Assembly: GCA_964560005.1 (NCBI GenBank)
Contig: CAZLKB010000002.1
Location: 128,381 to 192,380 of the forward strand
DNA length: 64,000 nt
Origin: an uncultured Gammaproteobacteria bacterium
GTDB taxonomy: Bacteria > Patescibacteriota > Patescibacteriia > Patescibacteriales > GWC2-42-12
Reading direction: 5' to 3'
Shown in pieces: positions 35,028-38,403 of this stretch; the stretch's first letter is position 1; every line of letters starts with the position of its first letter. Both the position numbers and the translations under genes were made by a program. A model generated the notes under the pieces. The model saw only the letters and a program-made list of their open reading frames with translations, made no database searches and was not told where the DNA came from.

Positions 35028-35220
35028 AATTTTAAAATAGAATAAAAATTTAAAATTTTAAAAATTTATTTCGCCTAACGTTTACGAGTATCCGAAGTTT
35101 TATTTATTCTACCTTATTATTGTTGATAATTAAAGAATAAATAAAATTTGCGCGGAGCAGATGAGAATAAATTTATAATTTTACCTAATGTTAGCTTAAT
35201 TTTATTTTTTGGATTTTCTA

Positions 35221-35248
35221 TTGACAAAACACCTGTATTTGCTATACT
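35221..35248 (+). promoter_or_regulatory. Strong sigma-70-type promoter inside unit 2
   Basis: TTGACA (35221-35226), 16-nt spacer, TATACT (35243-35248). Confidence 0.55.
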
Positions 35249-35254
35249 AATAAG

Positions 35255-35322
35255 GTCAAGTCCGGGTTGCAATCGGCACCTCTTAAATCCGAGCTCTCAT
35301 TCGAGCGCTCGGATTTTGTTTT
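35255..35322 (+). ncRNA. Candidate ~65-nt two-hairpin small RNA or leader, ending in an intrinsic terminator
   Basis: It lies downstream of the 35221 promoter. Hairpin 1 is GGT..CCG...CGG.ACC. Hairpin 2 pairs AAATCCGAGC (35285-35294) with GCTCGGATTT (35307-35316), followed by TTTTGTTTT. Confidence 0.4.
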
Positions 35323-35350
35323 GCGTTAAAAAATGCTACAATATTTTGGT

Positions 35351-35427
35351 GGAGTCATGGGGCCACCGTTGGTGCGGCTACTCGGACTTGACATTCGGGT
35401 TCAGGGGTTCGATTCCCCTTGGCTCCA
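35351..35427 (+). tRNA. Noncanonical tRNA-like gene (anticodon loop CUUGACA, nominal anticodon UGA; no encoded CCA)
   Basis: Acceptor stem GGAGTCA/TGGCTCC. T arm AGGGG-TTCGATT-CCCCT. Anticodon stem TCGGA/TTCGG (extendable to 7 bp). D stem GGCC/GGCT with an 11-nt GG-containing loop. Oddities: 3 nt at positions 8-9, 2 nt at position 26, and C at position 37. Confidence 0.45.
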
Positions 35428-35433
35428 CTTCAG

Positions 35434-35466
35434 AAACCATCTCAAAAGCGAGGTGGTTTTTGGTTT
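35434..35466 (+). terminator. Intrinsic terminator after the tRNA-like gene
   Basis: AAACCATCTC (35434-35443) pairs with GAGGTGGTTT (35450-35459), followed by TTTTTGGTTT. Confidence 0.7.
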
Positions 35467-35569
35467 ACTAAAAAATAAAATTAATTTTCAATAAACAGAA
35501 AAATTATAAATTTATTCTCATCTGCGTAGCCGGATACTCGTTGTTATCGGATGTAAAAATGAGCGGTTA

Positions 35570-36085
35570 TTATTGACTTTTGTTTATCTTCTTTAAAATT
35601 ATTTTTATGGCGTCATCTGGATTTCTAGATGAATTATCTATTTTGAATTCGTTTTTTATCGAGTCTCTTTTAATAAGTTGCTTATTCCAATTTAATGCTT
35701 CGCTAGCATTTCTAAAACCAGAATCTCGCGTATCATCCAAAACTCGATTAGACAATTCATTGTCATCATTAACCACTAAACTGAAAATTAAATAGTTTGT
35801 CGGATCAAAAATTTTTGGAATTTCTATAATTCGCCTGTCCAGAAGGTCGTTAACAATCACATAAGGGTATTTATTCTTAATATAGTTTTTGAGAATGAAT
35901 ACAAGATTTTCAAATGACATCTGCTCTTCTTTGTCGCTCTTATTGCTCCAAGATTTATTTAAGTGAAATTCCCTAATCCATCCGAAATCTATTAAAACAG
36001 AATTGTCCAATTTAATTTTCAGCTGATTTGAAATAGTAGTTTTCCCACTGCCAGGTGCTCCAGCTATAAAAATAATTTTTGTCAT
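35570..36085 (-). CDS. P-loop NTPase / small-molecule or nucleotide kinase-like protein (array gene)
   Basis: Walker A IAGAPGSGKTT at the N-terminus. 171 aa, of AAA_33/kinase-like size. Confidence 0.6.
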   Translation of the reverse strand: MTKIIFIAGAPGSGKTTISNQLKIKLDNSVLIDFGWIREFHLNKSWSNKSDKEEQMSFENLVFILKNYIKNKYPYVIVNDLLDRRIIEIPKIFDPTNYLIFSLVVNDDNELSNRVLDDTRDSGFRNASEALNWNKQLIKRDSIKNEFKIDNSSRNPDDAIKIILKKINKSQ

Positions 36086-36163
36086 ATTTATTGAAATTTT
36101 TAGTTTAGAACTACAGAGCTCATTTTTATTTCCGATAACGTATCCGAATATCGGAAGTTTGAC

Positions 36164-36391
36164 TTATTTTTTATCGTTCTCAAAAAATTCACTTTCTTTT
36201 AATCCGGATTGGAGCAAAATTGATTGAAATGTGCCATAAGGAATTTCTTTTTTACTCATTTTGATAGTGACATTTTTCGTCGGGCTGCCAGTTTTGCGAA
36301 AACGCGCATGTGACCCCTTTTGACGGACAAAAAAGAAGCCCTTTTGGCGAAGGACTCTTAATATCAAACTTAGTACAACCGGTTTAGGCAT
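36164..36391 (-). CDS. hicA: HicA-family mRNA interferase toxin
   Basis: 75 aa. LRQKGFFFVRQKGSHARFRK is the YcfA/HicA signature. It overlaps hicB by 8 nt. Confidence 0.8.
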   Translation of the reverse strand: MPKPVVLSLILRVLRQKGFFFVRQKGSHARFRKTGSPTKNVTIKMSKKEIPYGTFQSILLQSGLKESEFFENDKK

Positions 36392-36602
36392 ATTTAAAAG
36401 TAAGCGGTATTAGATCTGGTCGCTCCACTTTATTAATTTTAGAGGCAGGTATATCTTCTAAATGAAGTTCTAAGGCTTCTTGCAAGCATTCCAGGGCTTC
36501 TTTTTTGGTATCGCCGAAGCTGGAAACCGCGGTGTTGAGGTTCCAGGCTACATAGTATTTACCCTCTTTCCAAACTACATTTTTTAAGTCAATTTTGCGC
36601 AT
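36384..36602 (-). CDS. hicB: HicB-family antitoxin
   Basis: 72 aa. YYVAWNLNTAVSSFGDTKEALECLQEALELHLE-like UPF0150/HicB N-domain pattern. It sits upstream of, and overlaps, hicA. Confidence 0.75.
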   Translation of the reverse strand: MRKIDLKNVVWKEGKYYVAWNLNTAVSSFGDTKKEALECLQEALELHLEDIPASKINKVERPDLIPLTFKYA

Positions 36603-36791
36603 ATTGTTATATAATTATGCTTTTATCATACTAAAAGAGAAAAAATAAGTCAAATTTGGATGAGGGGCGAGCCGAGCTCCGAACCCGATATTCGGTGTTA
36701 GGCGAGGGTTCTTTTGCCCTTCCTTAATGCAATTATATCAAATAAAAGAGCAAAAGAAAGCGCAGCGTCCCCTTGAGTTGCCAGCCCGCTG

Positions 36792-37220
36792 TTACCTTTC
36801 TTCAACAGAAACACATTTATTTGATATACATTTTGCGTCGGGGCCAGAACCACAATCATTAATAGAAAGAGAACATTTCTGGTTATATATATCCATTTTT
36901 TTATAAAATTGTTCTTTGTCGATTTGTTTATTGATATAGTGATAACATCCAAATTCTATATAAGTCCCTCCTAGCATAATTACATCACAGTCTGAATCAG
37001 TTTGGCAATAGTTTGTTTTTTCTAAATCATTTTCAATCTCGTTATGTAAATCCTCGCAAACAAACTCACCCGATGGTTGATTGATAATAGGCAATTTAAT
37101 AGATGTTTTTTCAATTAATTCATTAGATTGTGGTTCAGTAAATTTATTTATTAACAGAAATGTGGCTGCAGAAATTAAAATTACTAAAGTAATTATCAAA
37201 TAAATGTGTTTTGTGCTCAT
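36792..37220 (-). CDS. Membrane-anchored Cys-rich exported protein (array gene)
   Basis: N-terminal TM anchor, then 9 Cys in about 90 residues (CEDL, YCQTDSDCD, FGCYHY, KCSLSINDCGSGPDAKCISNKC). Confidence 0.5.
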   Translation of the reverse strand: MSTKHIYLIITLVILISAATFLLINKFTEPQSNELIEKTSIKLPIINQPSGEFVCEDLHNEIENDLEKTNYCQTDSDCDVIMLGGTYIEFGCYHYINKQIDKEQFYKKMDIYNQKCSLSINDCGSGPDAKCISNKCVSVEER

Positions 37221-37354
37221 ATTGATAGAATTAATTATATTAGAATATTTAATAATTTCGACCTGAAAGGCGGGCTGGCAATTTCGTCCTAACGTTTCGG
37301 CGTATCTGAAGTTTCCGTTTTTGTGATATTTGATTAATAAAAAATGACAAATCT

Positions 37355-37876
37355 TTATTTTTTGCTCAAAGACGAGTTCATTATTTCTATGGTCAGCTTG
37401 ATCTGTCCTTTTGGGTCATTTAACATATAACCGCCATATTTTAATTCATCAAATCTACCATGAGCAACGTGGTTTCTGAGATCGTTAATTTTCCAAAGCA
37501 TTGTAATATAATTTTTATCCTTGGGCATAGTGGCATAATGTTTTTCAATTAATGATATTTTTGACCCAAAAGGTAATTTGTCAAGCATCCCGTTAATCAT
37601 AGGATTTTCAATTCCAAACATTTTATTCTTCTCAACAAAACTAATAATGTCGTTAATTTCACGTTCCATAAAATAGGTAATCCAAAAGACAAATTCTACT
37701 GCTTCAAATTGATCGTCTGTTATATTAAAACGTTTTTGAGCAAAAAGTTTGCCCATTTTTAATTCTTTTAGACCATTAAAATCAACCCCATGTTTTTCAA
37801 AAGTCTCAATGGCTTTATCTGGGTCAGAACTTAGAAATGCCATTATTTTATCGTCTAAAGATTTGTCATTTCCCAT
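37355..37876 (-). CDS. HEPN-motif protein (Abi-like candidate RNase)
   Basis: 173 aa, all-helical character. INDLRNHVAHGRF contains the Rx4H HEPN motif in its RNxxAH form. Confidence 0.5.
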   Translation of the reverse strand: MGNDKSLDDKIMAFLSSDPDKAIETFEKHGVDFNGLKELKMGKLFAQKRFNITDDQFEAVEFVFWITYFMEREINDIISFVEKNKMFGIENPMINGMLDKLPFGSKISLIEKHYATMPKDKNYITMLWKINDLRNHVAHGRFDELKYGGYMLNDPKGQIKLTIEIMNSSLSKK

Positions 37877-37933
37877 ATTTTAAATCACAAAAAAAGGAAA
37901 TTTGCGTGAGCAAGCGTTAAGAATAAAATTATC

Positions 37934-38308
37934 TTAATTATTTTTAAACTTTTTCATTTTACTCCGCATAACGAATATAAGAACAATCCATAAAAGTGCA
38001 AGGCTGAATATAGTATCAAAAACAACCATCATCAAAGCCGCAAAACTGTCCCCAAAAACTGAAAAAATTGCCCCTAAAAGAAGTGATATATAACCGGTAG
38101 TTACTCCTTGGGCTGACATAAATTCTCTTGTCATCATATCTATTATGCTTAATATGGTAAGGGCAATAAATATTCTAAAAAATATACGATATTTTTTATA
38201 TTTATCTGTGTCAGAAATTTTTTCAGTTTTTGCTTCCACAATTTTTTGTTTTTCAGCCGCTTTTTCATTTTCCTCTTTGTATAAATCCTTCATTTTTACT
38301 TCGCTCAT
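37934..38308 (-). CDS. Small membrane protein (charged N-terminus plus about 3 TM helices), upstream partner of the HEPN gene
   Basis: 124 aa. It lies 57 nt upstream of the HEPN ORF on the same strand. Confidence 0.5.
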   Translation of the reverse strand: MSEVKMKDLYKEENEKAAEKQKIVEAKTEKISDTDKYKKYRIFFRIFIALTILSIIDMMTREFMSAQGVTTGYISLLLGAIFSVFGDSFAALMMVVFDTIFSLALLWIVLIFVMRSKMKKFKNN

Positions 38309-38403
38309 ACTTTTTTATTTAAAAATAATTAAGATAATTTTATTTAGCTTGCGAACCAGATACGCCGTGTTAGGCGATGTATTTGTAAAAAATTATTTTA
38401 TTC

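Follow-up and report, generated by a model that had tools for sequence, protein, structure and literature searches.

The window, the whole 64,000-nucleotide stretch of DNA analysed here, carries an array of five paired sites (units 1 to 5). To its right lies a gene for an Xer/IntI-like tyrosine recombinase, which is transcribed away from the array (Table 1). The genes of the five cassettes are on the minus strand. The initial annotation had joined ten arms into five sites by their complementary boxes. All ten arms were found as placed and the boxes are complementary; re-measured boundaries change the spans from 90, 481, 576, 1094 and 133 bp to 89, 479, 573, 1091 and 130 bp. Units 2 to 5 have 11-nt boxes that pair without a mismatch; in unit 1 there is one. 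The left-arm pattern matches four times in the window against 0.02 matches expected, and chance is excluded as the source of the arms and of their pairing. The boxes of units 2 and 3 each have only one matching right arm in the window.

Table 1. Features of the array and its surroundings. Unit coordinates run from left-arm start to right-arm end; IR, inverted repeat.
Feature	Coordinates	Strand	Description
Unit 1	34464..34552	+	Short attC-like site, 89 bp; box CGCGATATCAG, one mismatch; array-distal end
Cassette 5 outside gene	34581..35027	-	148-aa SRPBCC/Polyketide_cyc2; framed by IR 34554-34587 / 35034-35067
Unit 2	35075..35553	+	Long site, 479 bp; left arm 35075-35099; H1 ~35095-35149; linker ~35146-35156; H2 stem arms 35157-35182 / 35500-35525 (26 bp, 100% complementary); right arm 35528-35553
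Unit 2 cargo, H2 loop	35221..35470	+	Promoter, small hairpin-terminated RNA, terminator (sequence reading)
Unit 2 cargo promoter	TTGACA 35221-35226, TATACT 35243-35248	+	Sigma70-like (sequence reading)
Unit 2 tRNA-like element	35359-35430		ARAGORN: 70-nt tRNA-Ser(tga)
Unit 2 cargo terminator	~35431-35470		Sequence reading
Cassette 4 outside gene	35570..36085	-	171-aa P-loop protein, weak Zeta_toxin/AAA_18 matches; IR 35543-35564 / 36118-36139
Unit 3	36135..36707	+	Long site, 573 bp; left arm 36135-36159; H1 stem arms 36155-36178 / 36634-36657; linker 36653-36663, then small H2; right arm 36682-36707
Unit 3 cargo, H1 loop	36164..36602	-	hicA 36164-36391 and DUF7387 partner 36384-36602
Cassette 3 outside gene	36792..37220	-	142-aa ORF; 18/18 IR 36809-36826 / 37194-37211 inside both ORF ends; 12-bp repeat ~36783-36795 / 37270-37282 (sequence reading)
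Unit 4	37289..38379	+	Long site, 1091 bp; left arm 37289-37313; H1 stem arms 37313-37357 / 37856-37900; linker 37899-37909; H2 stem arms 37922-37948 / 38318-38344 (27 bp, 100% complementary); right arm 38354-38379
Unit 4 cargo, H1 loop	37355..37876	-	173-aa all-helical protein, invariant Rx4H motif
Unit 4 cargo, H2 loop	37934..38308	-	124-aa ORF, membrane protein by sequence reading
Cassette 2 outside gene	38404..38877	-	157-aa ORF, membrane protein by DNA reading; IR 38375-38397 / 38882-38904
Unit 5	38907..39036	+	Short site, 130 bp; family's canonical three-way junction
attI-proximal cassette genes	39097..40532	-	N6_N4 DNA methylase 39097-39930; 199-aa ORF 39933-40532
Leader-like element	40579..40727	+	attI-proximal end of first cassette
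attI-like junction	40717..40743	+	TTTCATATAA|C-TCCTCTTTATACGAAT; predicted crossover between 40726 and 40727
Tyrosine recombinase	40840..41660	+	Xer/IntI-like, 273 aa after frameshift repair

Site orientation alternates strictly along the array, and the genes inside and outside the sites are each framed by their own inverted repeat. Among the outside genes, the 157-aa ORF of cassette 2 gave no match in Pfam and PADLOC searches. The leader-like element matches sequences in dozens of fetched loci at 75-86% identity and lies just left of a left arm in the cases examined (L025 and L175).

Units 2 to 4 enclose real cargo, as the initial annotation had claimed. Complete predicted genes occupy the H1 and/or H2 loops of these sites, closed by 26-45-bp stems. 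The tRNA-like element of unit 2 scores 30 bits on the Rfam tmRNA model, which is sub-threshold. A 176-nt homologue of this cargo occurs in locus L090 (8635-8806), within the H1 span of a site at 8473-9160. In unit 3, HicA matches PF07927 (1e-13). Homologous hicAB pairs lie behind the same H1 stem in L158 and in L046, L063 and L124, and the left-arm box of the L158 site differs from that of the window. For unit 4 a pair of transmembrane (TM) and HEPN genes had been proposed. Both ORFs are present, with the TM call coming from sequence reading. The one feature that points to HEPN in the 173-aa protein is its invariant Rx4H motif, making this a putative, unverified assignment; Pfam, PADLOC, PDB sequence and Foldseek searches returned no match.

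Homologues of the 173-aa gene occupy the H1 position in L172-174, L175 and L176, and the 124-aa ORF is absent from the orthologous site in L172. The gene occupies the H1 loop in the window, in L172-174 and in L175 (64% amino acid identity), and the boxes of these sites are CGGCGTATCTG and CGCTGTATCCG. Each box was compared with its own right arm; the match is perfect in the window and L175 and has one mismatch in L172. In this family the two arms changed in step with each other over a loop of 0.6-1.1 kb. For the 173-aa gene as for hicAB, homologues are found in H1 loops of sites with differing boxes.

Each site is predicted to fold on the plus strand. An R box (CTAAC/GTTAG) would be followed by an asymmetric 4x1 internal loop (GTTT opposite T), an 11-bp paired L box (the variable box of the initial annotation) and a three-way junction with hairpins H1 and H2. 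The recombination site would work as folded, single-stranded plus-strand DNA. When folded as single-stranded DNA, every unit forms 9-11 of the 11 L-box pairs in its minimum-energy structure, and this pairing persists in a single-strand fold of the entire 4.6-kb array. The folding z-score of unit 2 is -10.5. Unit 3 is borderline, as its near-palindromic arms fold locally instead when 6 extra flanking nucleotides are included (z = -2.7). R-box pairing reaches 10-20 bp into the cassette ends, and extrahelical bases are absent from sites of the family.

The better-folding strand is evident in the short sites. In 65 of 71 of them the plus-strand fold has the lower energy, with a mean advantage of 2.5 kcal/mol; G.T pairs total 169 on the plus and 46 on the minus strand. 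The bottom strands of classical attC sites have the same folding bias, 2.12 kcal/mol (PMC5027507). The cargo-closing stems are almost pure Watson-Crick and show no strand bias (G.T pairs: 18 plus, 23 minus; ddG -0.2, not significant). Young or homogenised repeats may fit these unbiased stems as well as long-term selection on one strand does. Cargo-bearing H2 stems have a median length of 40 bp, against 10 bp for cargo-free H2 (p = 2e-19). In our reading of the alignments, stem substitutions are compensatory between L043 and L099, and indels are matched on both stem arms between the window and L172.

The comparison set comprised 171 related loci, mostly from Patescibacteria, gathered by a strict left-arm pattern. 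Site lengths are bimodal, with one group of 77-231 bp, another of 331-1105 bp and nothing between 231 and 331 bp; the long group makes up about 16% of sites, a figure that holds for this sample only. Where arms lie 300-1200 bp apart, 27 of 48 unfiltered pairs have perfectly matching boxes, against 2.3% of random left and right partners. The perfect-match rate is 56% in long sites and 59% in short sites (103/176), and the perfect long pairs use 14 distinct boxes. All 37 long sites with a matched linker motif have exactly one three-way-junction linker, with cargo in H2 (30 sites), H1 (4) or both (3). The initial annotation had proposed a covariation check over many copies. In 48 long sites that are independent of each other, pairing in the L-box helix reaches 90.9%, and both partners vary at 9 of its 11 pairs. 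The covariation score of the full 20-pair structure is 0.353; shuffles give 0.143 and slid partners 0.04-0.10. The arms thus covary over 0.3-1.1 kb, which supports the arm pairing and the functional coupling that the annotation had argued for.

Cargo of the related sites also includes HD, methyltransferase and DpnI-like domain proteins and, by sequence reading, small membrane-type proteins. Sequence reading also identified 13 plus-strand cargos, each with a promoter and a terminator of its own. Some homologous long sites have a decayed arm (L176; L046, L063 and L124). Assembly chimeras are an unlikely source of the long sites, because these occur in many independent assemblies. Gene-bearing sites evidently persist, and the gene-in-loop layout recurs in about one-sixth of sites across related genomes. 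We know of no description of genes inside site loops in classical integrons.

The recombinase carries a 1-nt frameshift in an A-run (~41470-41476) in this genome. Its score is 226.8 bits against NF040815 ('site-specific tyrosine recombinase/integron integrase', cut-off 220); against TIGR02249, the IntI model with a cut-off of 265, it reaches 214 bits, split over two stretches. The IntI-specific domain is absent by profile-model comparison. In 9 genome loci a homologue follows the array on its right side, encoded on the same strand, and identity among the 120 best homologues is 71-87%. A recombinase so conserved and without the IntI domain could be a housekeeping Xer protein with another main role. 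About 110 bp upstream of the gene is the attI-like site, whose motif (Y)AAC|TCGTTTnTATACGAA is conserved upstream of the recombinase gene in 10 loci. By our own pairing, the outer box of right arm 5 matches this junction. We infer that the recombinase would act on these sites. The array is unlikely to be a chromosomal dif site, because GC skew is positive on both sides of it.

In the model that we propose from sequence comparison, each cassette would consist of a gene and then a recombination site, with strand exchange at CTAA|C in the left arm. The variable outer bases of the R box covary with the neighbouring site, on the far side of the outside gene: 74% of cells are paired with its right arm, compared with 46% for their own partner. 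Near-identical sites share only the right flank in 16 cases and only the left flank in 1. Box and inner region are inherited together, as 105 of 125 high-identity inner pairs share the box. The R-box covariation and flank linkage place the crossover at CTAA|C and, with the co-inheritance of box and inner region, fit one crossover per site, as in integron cassettes. These three results speak against the suggestion, in the form given, that each inter-site segment is an independent pdif-like module.

We consider it probable that the locus is a chromosomal integron-like cassette platform of an ultra-small, CPR/Patescibacteria-type bacterium, with genes nested in the site loops. Since the embedded genes lie in loops, they would be part of the site, unlike those of pdif modules, and would share a cassette with the outside gene upstream of them. 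The annotation's first reading, that modules had inserted into attC variable loops, stands as to the place of the cargo, with one linker per long site and genes in the H1 or H2 loop. It does not stand as to the platform, which is not a canonical integron, or as to the cargo, which is not limited to addiction and defence; insertion is an interpretation of how the genes came there. To fold, a gene-bearing site would need 0.5-1.1 kb of single strand at the same time, as may occur on the lagging-strand template or in incoming transforming DNA, so these sites would recombine more rarely than short sites. Toxin-antitoxin pairs of the hicAB type in the loops would help to retain the cassette. All four cassettes with an outside segment below 100 bp have a gene-bearing site, and none of the 115 short-site cassettes is of this kind.

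A two-level or pdif-like system, in which the inside of a pair is itself exchangeable and recombination takes place at both arms (through use of either strand, for instance) or at nested H2 frames, so that any inter-site segment could move independently, is unlikely. The strict alternation and the inverted repeat around each gene suit it. The comparison of homologous arrays, which the initial annotation had called for, gave mainly right-flank linkage, yet in two comparisons site and cargo are conserved and both flanks differ, which a strict one-crossover model does not predict. Unit 4 and L172 share the site and H1 cargo (88% nucleotide identity) and differ in H2 cargo, outer R box and both outside flanks. 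L047 and L110 have a common site and DpnI-like cargo and share neither flank. These cases keep a weaker form of the module reading alive. An H2 frame, GC(N)AGC-GTTAAG-AATAAAAT.. / ..ATTTTATT-TA-GC(N)(N)GC, holds differing cargo in six loci, and in our reading it has the same 'stem / GTTA loop / stem' plan as the main site. The tRNA-like module occupies H2 in the window, and its L090 homologue falls in an H1 span. Against exchange of the inside stand the co-inheritance of box and inner region and the asymmetric flank linkage. By our count the boxes of homologous cargo-bearing sites diverge at 3 of 11 positions, similar to the 22-33% nucleotide divergence of the cargo, so no transfer between sites is needed. 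We do not read the sites as 11-6-11 Xer sites, and an inner arm that is free in sequence but complementary to its partner points to recognition of structure rather than of sequence by a protein.

It is also quite improbable that ordinary short sites were inactivated by genes that landed in their loops, leaving units 2 to 4 as dead sites that fuse neighbouring cassettes, with complementarity as a leftover. A longer terminal loop goes with less recombination from double-stranded DNA in classical integrons (PMC5027507). The cargo-closing stems lack wobble and strand bias, one arm is lost in some long sites, and the local recombinase is frameshifted. However, perfect L-box pairing is as common in long sites as in short ones, and the arms of the 173-aa family changed together around cargo that has diverged to 64% amino acid identity. 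The closing stems are four times longer than cargo-free hairpins and, in our reading, carry compensatory changes; in four cassettes the sole gene is inside the site.

A role of the inverted repeats in RNA or transcription (processing stems, terminators or insulators) instead of DNA recombination is very improbable. The repeats do bracket transcription units, including the 13 plus-strand cargos. However, the favoured folding strand of short sites is antisense to most genes, pair arms lie 0.3-1.1 kb apart, array position and polarity are fixed beside the recombinase and attI-like site, and the R box carries a crossover signature. The case of independent half-sites, which the annotation had named as a refutation and in which a long pair joins the left arm of one degraded site to the right arm of another through a common box, is refuted by linker, box and stem data: very common boxes such as CGGCATATCTG and CGGCGTATCTG do give spurious 1.6-2.4 kb matches with other sites between, but linker-matched long sites each hold a single linker and have H1 and H2 in the expected order, many distinct boxes match far above the random rate, units 2 and 3 have single partners in the window, and flanking stems pair across the cargo.

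The integron-like platform that we favour can be set beside several known systems. The pdif sites of Acinetobacter plasmids are 28-bp double-stranded XerC/XerD sites with conserved arms. Both systems alternate site orientation and hold small modules, including toxin-antitoxin genes, between inverted sites. The array described here differs in being chromosomal and beside one recombinase, in flanks that point to one crossover per site, and in an inner arm that is variable in sequence but complementary to a distant partner.

In XerCD-mediated integration of the CTX phage, the substrate is a folded single-stranded attP hairpin. Here too the substrate would be a folded strand, and the enzyme an Xer-family recombinase that lacks the IntI insertion. 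PMC5027507 names XerC/XerD as the one other case of tyrosine recombinases known to work on single- as well as double-stranded DNA. The window differs in having a many-cassette array rather than a phage genome, a target that adjoins the recombinase gene rather than a skew switch, and only one recombinase gene seen. Work on synthetic attC sites in arbitrary sequence (PMC7439510) and on archaeal integrons (PMC9668308) indicates that attC function is structure-specific and tolerant of sequence; taken together, the two also place integrons outside the classical bacterial phyla. In the synthetic work the site is inside a gene, whereas here the gene is inside the site. The IntI-specific domain is reportedly retained in archaeal IntIs; the recombinase here lacks it.

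Classical integrons (IntI; for example, Vibrio cholerae repeats, with branched terminal structures) are similar in overall plan. Shared features are a recombinase divergent from a co-oriented array and adjoining an attI-like site, cassettes made of a gene and a downstream imperfect hairpin site with AAC/GTT cores, and one strand that folds better. An R-box crossover that leaves the cassette start complementary to its own inverse core is also common to both, as are toxin-antitoxin and restriction-type genes among the cargo. The differences lie in the 273-aa recombinase without the IntI-specific domain and in the sites themselves, which have no extrahelical bases, a fully paired 11-bp L box with the 4x1 loop, a conserved three-way-junction linker (AATTTGGGTGA) and R-box pairing that extends into the cassette ends. 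Reported attC sites range from 57 to 141 bp (PMC5027507), whereas the long sites of our sample span 0.33-1.1 kb and carry genes in their loops.

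Between 33800 and 39800, the plus strand of the window holds five left arms of the form TTTC-NN-CTAAC-GTTT-[N5 TATC N G]-AAGTT and five right arms of the form AAC-[C N GATA N5]-T-GTTA-NNN-GATG, located by reading and by a degenerate-pattern scan. In the window the left-arm pattern has 4 matches where 0.02 would be expected. Paired left to right, the arms delimit five units. Complementarity of the 11-nt boxes is perfect in units 2 to 5, with one mismatch in unit 1, so the arm positions and complementary pairing proposed in the initial annotation hold. This box helix (the L box) is complete in the predicted folds of units 2 to 4, both alone and in a fold of the whole 4.6-kb array, and the fold predicted for unit 3 depends on sequence context. 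The genes of the array all lie on the minus strand, and the AT content of the array is above that of its flanks.

Features of the array and its recombinase, in window positions (units run from left-arm start to right-arm end, both from the pattern scan; their strand is that of the left arm)
Feature	Start	End	Strand	Description
Unit 1	34464	34552	+	89 bp
Unit 2	35075	35553	+	479 bp
Unit 2 cargo	35221	35470	+	reads as a small-RNA locus: TTGACA/TATACT promoter, short hairpin-terminated RNA, 72-nt tRNA-like element, terminator
Unit 3	36135	36707	+	573 bp
Unit 4	37289	38379	+	1091 bp
Unit 5	38907	39036	+	130 bp
attI-proximal cassette	39097	40532		N6/N4 DNA methylase and 199-aa ORF without assigned function
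attI-like junction	40717	40743		
Tyrosine recombinase	40840	41660	+	1-nt frameshift in an A-run (41464-41480)

Related loci show the same division into short and long units. A left-arm pattern scan of one genome per species found 51 loci, mostly in Patescibacteria of many classes, and a metagenome scan with this pattern added at least 120 more; viral contigs scanned with it gave 0 matches. Exact left-arm matches also occur in metagenome-assembled genomes labelled Gammaproteobacteria (loci L011, L017, L029, L033, and L039), Bacteroidia/Bacteroidales (L007/L031), and Omnitrophota (L001), and in others labelled as the archaeal groups Nanoarchaeota (L045) and Thermoplasmatales (L022). Several of these loci contain complete sites. 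They are either mis-binned contigs of the Candidate Phyla Radiation (CPR) or the result of cassette spread across phyla and domains. Over 171 loci, site length is bimodal, with about 236 sites of 77-231 bp, about 45 (about 16%) of 331-1105 bp, and none between.

We asked if the distant arms of long units belong together by taking each left arm with the next right arm 300-1200 bp away, non-redundantly and with no complementarity filter (n=48). The boxes match at all 11 positions in 27 of these 48 pairs and with two or fewer mismatches in a further 10. A perfect match is found in 2.3% of draws with random partners and in 103 of 176 short sites. Across the long pairs, 90.9% of L-box cells are paired, and 9 of the 11 base pairs show changes on both sides. 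The covariation score for the 20-pair structure is 0.353, compared with 0.143 ± 0.011 for shuffles and 0.04-0.10 for slid partners. The within-pair covariation that the initial annotation had claimed for the window units is thus borne out over the 48 long pairs.

The architecture of the site was read from 71 short sites. On the plus strand they are predicted to fold with an R box, then a 4x1 internal loop in which GTTT faces a single T, an uninterrupted 11-bp L box, and finally a three-way junction. Hairpin H1 runs from AAGTT to AATTT; a conserved linker, GGGTGA, then opens hairpin H2, which ends in GAACC. Paired CTAAC/GTTAG cores are present, and the predicted folds of the 71 sites contain no conserved bulged (extrahelical) bases. 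The plus strand gives the more stable fold in 65 of them, by a mean of 2.5 kcal/mol, and has 169 G.T pairs versus 46 on the minus strand. The bottom strands of classical attC sites have the same kind of bias (PMC5027507). Our choice of strand is based on folding energy, G.T counts, and platform layout. The extrahelical-base rule for the bottom strand, which gave the minus strand, was rejected, as its "AA bulge" belongs to the H1 stem and the family is without extrahelical bases.

The crossover signature is one-sided. In 74% of cells the three variable outer R-box bases pair, over the outside gene (the gene between sites), with the right arm of the neighbouring site, versus 46% with the partner in their own site, and columns 6/56 and 7/55 pair poorly within the site. 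Near-identical sites on different contigs share the right flank alone 16 times and the left flank alone once. Together, the outer R-box pairing and the 16:1 flank linkage indicate that a cassette is a minus-strand gene plus its downstream site, with the crossover between CTAA and C in the left arm. This is the cassette logic of integrons.

Cassette-specific inverted repeats that extend the R box bracket the outside genes, with a duplex energy of -11.9 kcal/mol versus -6.4 kcal/mol for mismatched controls (p = 2e-12); they are present at 4 of 4 outside genes of the window array. A 142-aa ORF there has an 18/18 inverted repeat inside both of its ends (36809-36826 / 37194-37211), so the bracketing pairing enters the coding sequence. 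A 157-aa ORF has an internal 24-nt repeat of 96% (38477-38500 / 38694-38717).

Wherever the linker motif was matched, a long site contains exactly one linker. The cargo, a gene inside the site, is in the H2 loop at 30 sites, in the H1 loop at 4 (including window unit 3), and in both at 3 (including window unit 4). The motif is unmatched in window unit 2, where H2-loop placement comes from reading the sequence. Since a long site contains a single linker and a single H1, an origin by fusion of adjacent sites, with loss of the arms between, was rejected. Nested insertion of a whole cassette was also rejected, because almost no long site holds another recognisable site. Cargo ORFs are intact (48-269 aa), 33 on the cassette strand and 13 on the plus strand, the latter with what read as their own sigma70-like promoters. 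Pfam matches include a RelE/ParE-like toxin with a ribbon-helix-helix partner and HD, SAM methyltransferase, and DpnI-like domains.

Cargo-bearing H2 loops are closed by long stems, with a median of 40 bp and -25 kcal/mol, versus 10 bp and -9.6 kcal/mol in cargo-free sites (p = 2e-19). The closing stems in the window measure 26-45 bp. A strand bias was looked for in cargo-closing stems and none was found. An outside segment of <100 bp occurs in four cassettes, every one with a gene-bearing site, and in none of the 115 whose site is short. The only gene of a cassette can therefore sit inside its site. In L011, L025, L043 (7003-7569), L099 (954-2058), and L154, plus-strand H2 cargos share a second inverted repeat nearer the cargo, GGGCTTTTTACAATTTTTT / AAAAAATTGTAAAAAGCCC; a TTGACA promoter comes after it, and it is kept around unrelated genes.

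Most of the enclosed features described in the initial annotation were recovered in the window: a tRNA-like element in unit 2, HicA with a partner in unit 3, and two ORFs in unit 4. ARAGORN calls a 70-nt tRNA-Ser(tga) in unit 2. The element reaches 30 bits with the Rfam tmRNA model, below the threshold of 47, and Rfam at gathering thresholds has no match in the window. At this sub-threshold score, the element resembles the tRNA-like domain of tmRNA. A 176-nt homologue of this cargo (76% identity) lies at 8635-8806 of L090, within the H1 span of a site at 8473-9160, and L137 likewise carries one. The outside gene adjoining unit 2 encodes a P-loop kinase-like protein with weak Zeta_toxin, AAA_18, and KTI12 matches.

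The HicA partner in unit 3 is a DUF7387 protein. Unit 4 carries a 124-aa ORF, read as a membrane protein, and a 173-aa ORF with an Rx4H motif that is invariant in 12 homologues. The HEPN label first given to the 173-aa protein was dropped, as Pfam, PADLOC, a PDB profile search, and Foldseek (model pLDDT 86) returned no significant match. Gene tables place its distant homologues (40-46% identity) in ordinary operon-like contexts. Defence genes adjoin more distant homologues of the protein: Tsp45I, N6_N4 methylase, SMODS/AGS_C, and SLATT_4 in L177 (contig SRR26582964_75987) and a type I restriction S subunit in L179, which suggests a defence-related role for the family.

Homologues of these cargos bear on the persistence of the arrangement. 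Those of the 173-aa gene with 92%, 64%, and 61% identity are all at the H1 position of a site of the family. In L175 the box is CGCTGTATCCG on both arms, versus CGGCGTATCTG in the window, so both arms have changed together across the gene. The L176 site, of this same gene family, has lost its right arm. Homologues of hicAB (72-78% nucleotide identity) sit behind the same H1 stem. Among them, the L158 site has a different left-arm box on a contig that stops short of the right arm, and the arm-arm helix P1 has decayed in L046, L063, and L124. The same left frame is found in both cargo-free and cargo-bearing sites. L043 and L099 have in common the left arm, H1, and two H2 stem segments, around unrelated cargos, with two compensatory substitutions by our reading of the alignment. 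An H2 frame, GC(N)AGC-GTTAAG-AATAAAAT, recurs.

The initial annotation also put forward a pdif-like organization, with every segment between sites a module of its own; such modules would move one by one, exchanged at the two sites around them. As stated, this reading is not supported by site anatomy or by the one-sided crossover signature. A pdif site is 28 bp of double-stranded DNA with conserved 11-bp XerC/XerD arms and a 6-bp spacer, whereas by our reading the arms here are not dyad-symmetric 11-6-11, and their inner 11 nt differ from site to site, changing in step with a distant partner. The one-sidedness of the outer R-box pairing and of the flank linkage likewise speaks against exchange at both sites, and independent assortment of the box and the inner region was looked for among related sites and not seen. 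What speaks for it is that some inside units are kept between different flanks. Window unit 4 and L172 have a site and H1 gene of 88% nucleotide identity, with indels matched on both arms of the H1 stem by our reading, but differ in H2 cargo, outer R box, and both outside genes; L047 and L110 are a second such case.

Inside units kept between differing flanks, together with the recurring H2 frame, leave room for a second level of exchange. In such a two-level cassette system, the hairpin loops would form a second cargo tier, and inverted-repeat-flanked modules would be exchanged in conserved stem frames repeating the "stem / GTTA-loop / stem" pattern of the main site, possibly by the same Xer/IntI-like recombinase; as its recombinase is without the IntI insertion, the family could also be near the Xer-to-integron transition. 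We consider this scheme unlikely.

The recombinase itself is Xer/IntI-like. Repaired, it is a 273-aa protein that passes NF040815 ("site-specific tyrosine recombinase/integron integrase") with 226.8 bits (cut-off 220). It scores 214 bits with the IntI model TIGR02249, below the cut-off of 265 and in two stretches, so it lacks the IntI-specific insertion. The PDB match to VchIntIA (2a3v) is likewise split in two stretches. Among >7000 relatives, the closest 120 are 71-87% identical, and 110 of these 120 have 272-277 aa. Because nearly all of the closest 120 are intact at about 273 aa, the frameshift in the window copy marks either a recent pseudogene or an error in sequencing the homopolymer.

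In 10 loci, a conserved attI-like motif in which TTTCnnnTAAC meets TCGTTTnTATACGAA lies upstream of the recombinase start. The outer box of right arm 5 matches the window copy of this junction by our own pairing. Recombinase homologues always lie on the plus strand, right of the array, and array side and polarity are constant. The attI-proximal cassette may be a small restriction-modification module. At its attI-proximal end, an element of ~150 nt (40579-40727) has 75-86% identity to dozens of the related loci and, in the cases checked (L025 and L175), directly precedes a left arm on its left side. Cassettes may use it in common as a leader or promoter region. Far from the array, a sequence of ~60 nt, CGACGAGCGACAGCGAGTCGAGGCGGGTTAGGT.AATTAGGAATTAGA.., has two plus-strand copies (~18350-18410 and ~46921-46980).

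The favoured interpretation is an integron-like platform, with genes now housed in the variable terminal part of the folded site. Loop length impairs extrusion of attC sites from double-stranded DNA but not their recombination from single-stranded DNA (PMC5027507), and their folding is favoured on the lagging-strand template (PMC5371416). From this classical work, gene-bearing sites should need kilobase-long single strands and would recombine more rarely than short sites. The folded strand in the window is the G-rich strand, and there is a weak indication that it is the lagging-strand template. The case for current function is weakened by the frameshifted local recombinase, the unbiased closing stems, and the decayed relatives.

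These sites bear on the limits of structure-specific recombination. Classical integron sites are thought to be short (57-141 bp), with loop length limiting folding; in those described here the arms apparently stay paired with 0.3-1.1 kb of coding DNA between them, and over ~36% cargo protein divergence. The maximal arm separation in a folded single-stranded recombination site, and the use of kilobase single-stranded DNA (lagging-strand template or natural transformation) in recombination, can now be tested. A large integron-like family in the CPR is exposed, whose recombinase is without the IntI-specific domain and whose sites are without extrahelical bases, and it bears on the origin of integrons from Xer-type recombinases. 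Tools requiring that domain or short sites would probably miss it as a complete integron. Because toxin-antitoxin and restriction-type genes sit inside sites, the limits of cassettes and the number of genes in such arrays need to be reassessed. The full-text literature searched, which covers journals incompletely, yielded no description of integron-like CPR arrays or of genes inside attC sites.

Among known systems, transposon or MITE insertion fits poorly, since the distal repeats differ for every cargo and neither target-site duplications nor a transposase gene was seen in the window array; a subset of plus-strand cargos does have the common repeat GGGCTTTTTACAATTTTTT. On either side of the array GC skew stays positive, without a switch at ~40.7 kb, which suggests that CTX-like dif integration at the replication terminus is not involved. 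As in integrons, an attI-like site is by the recombinase gene, the array starts there with its genes co-oriented away, crossover is in the R box, and the first bases of a cassette are complementary to its own inverse core. Integron attC cores, RYYYAAC / GTTRRRY, form an imperfect hairpin that recombines in its bottom-strand fold; here CTAAC/GTTAG are paired and one strand is predicted to fold better. Unlike in integrons, the additional IntI-specific domain (around patch III) is absent, as are, in the predicted folds, the extrahelical bases near L'' and the unpaired 5-6-nt central spacer of each attC arm. In place of the 57-141 bp and short or branched non-coding terminus of attC, units 2 to 4 are several times longer and carry genes. 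The system works like an integron, yet three defining features that were tested set it apart: it lacks the IntI-specific domain and extrahelical bases, and its site length differs.
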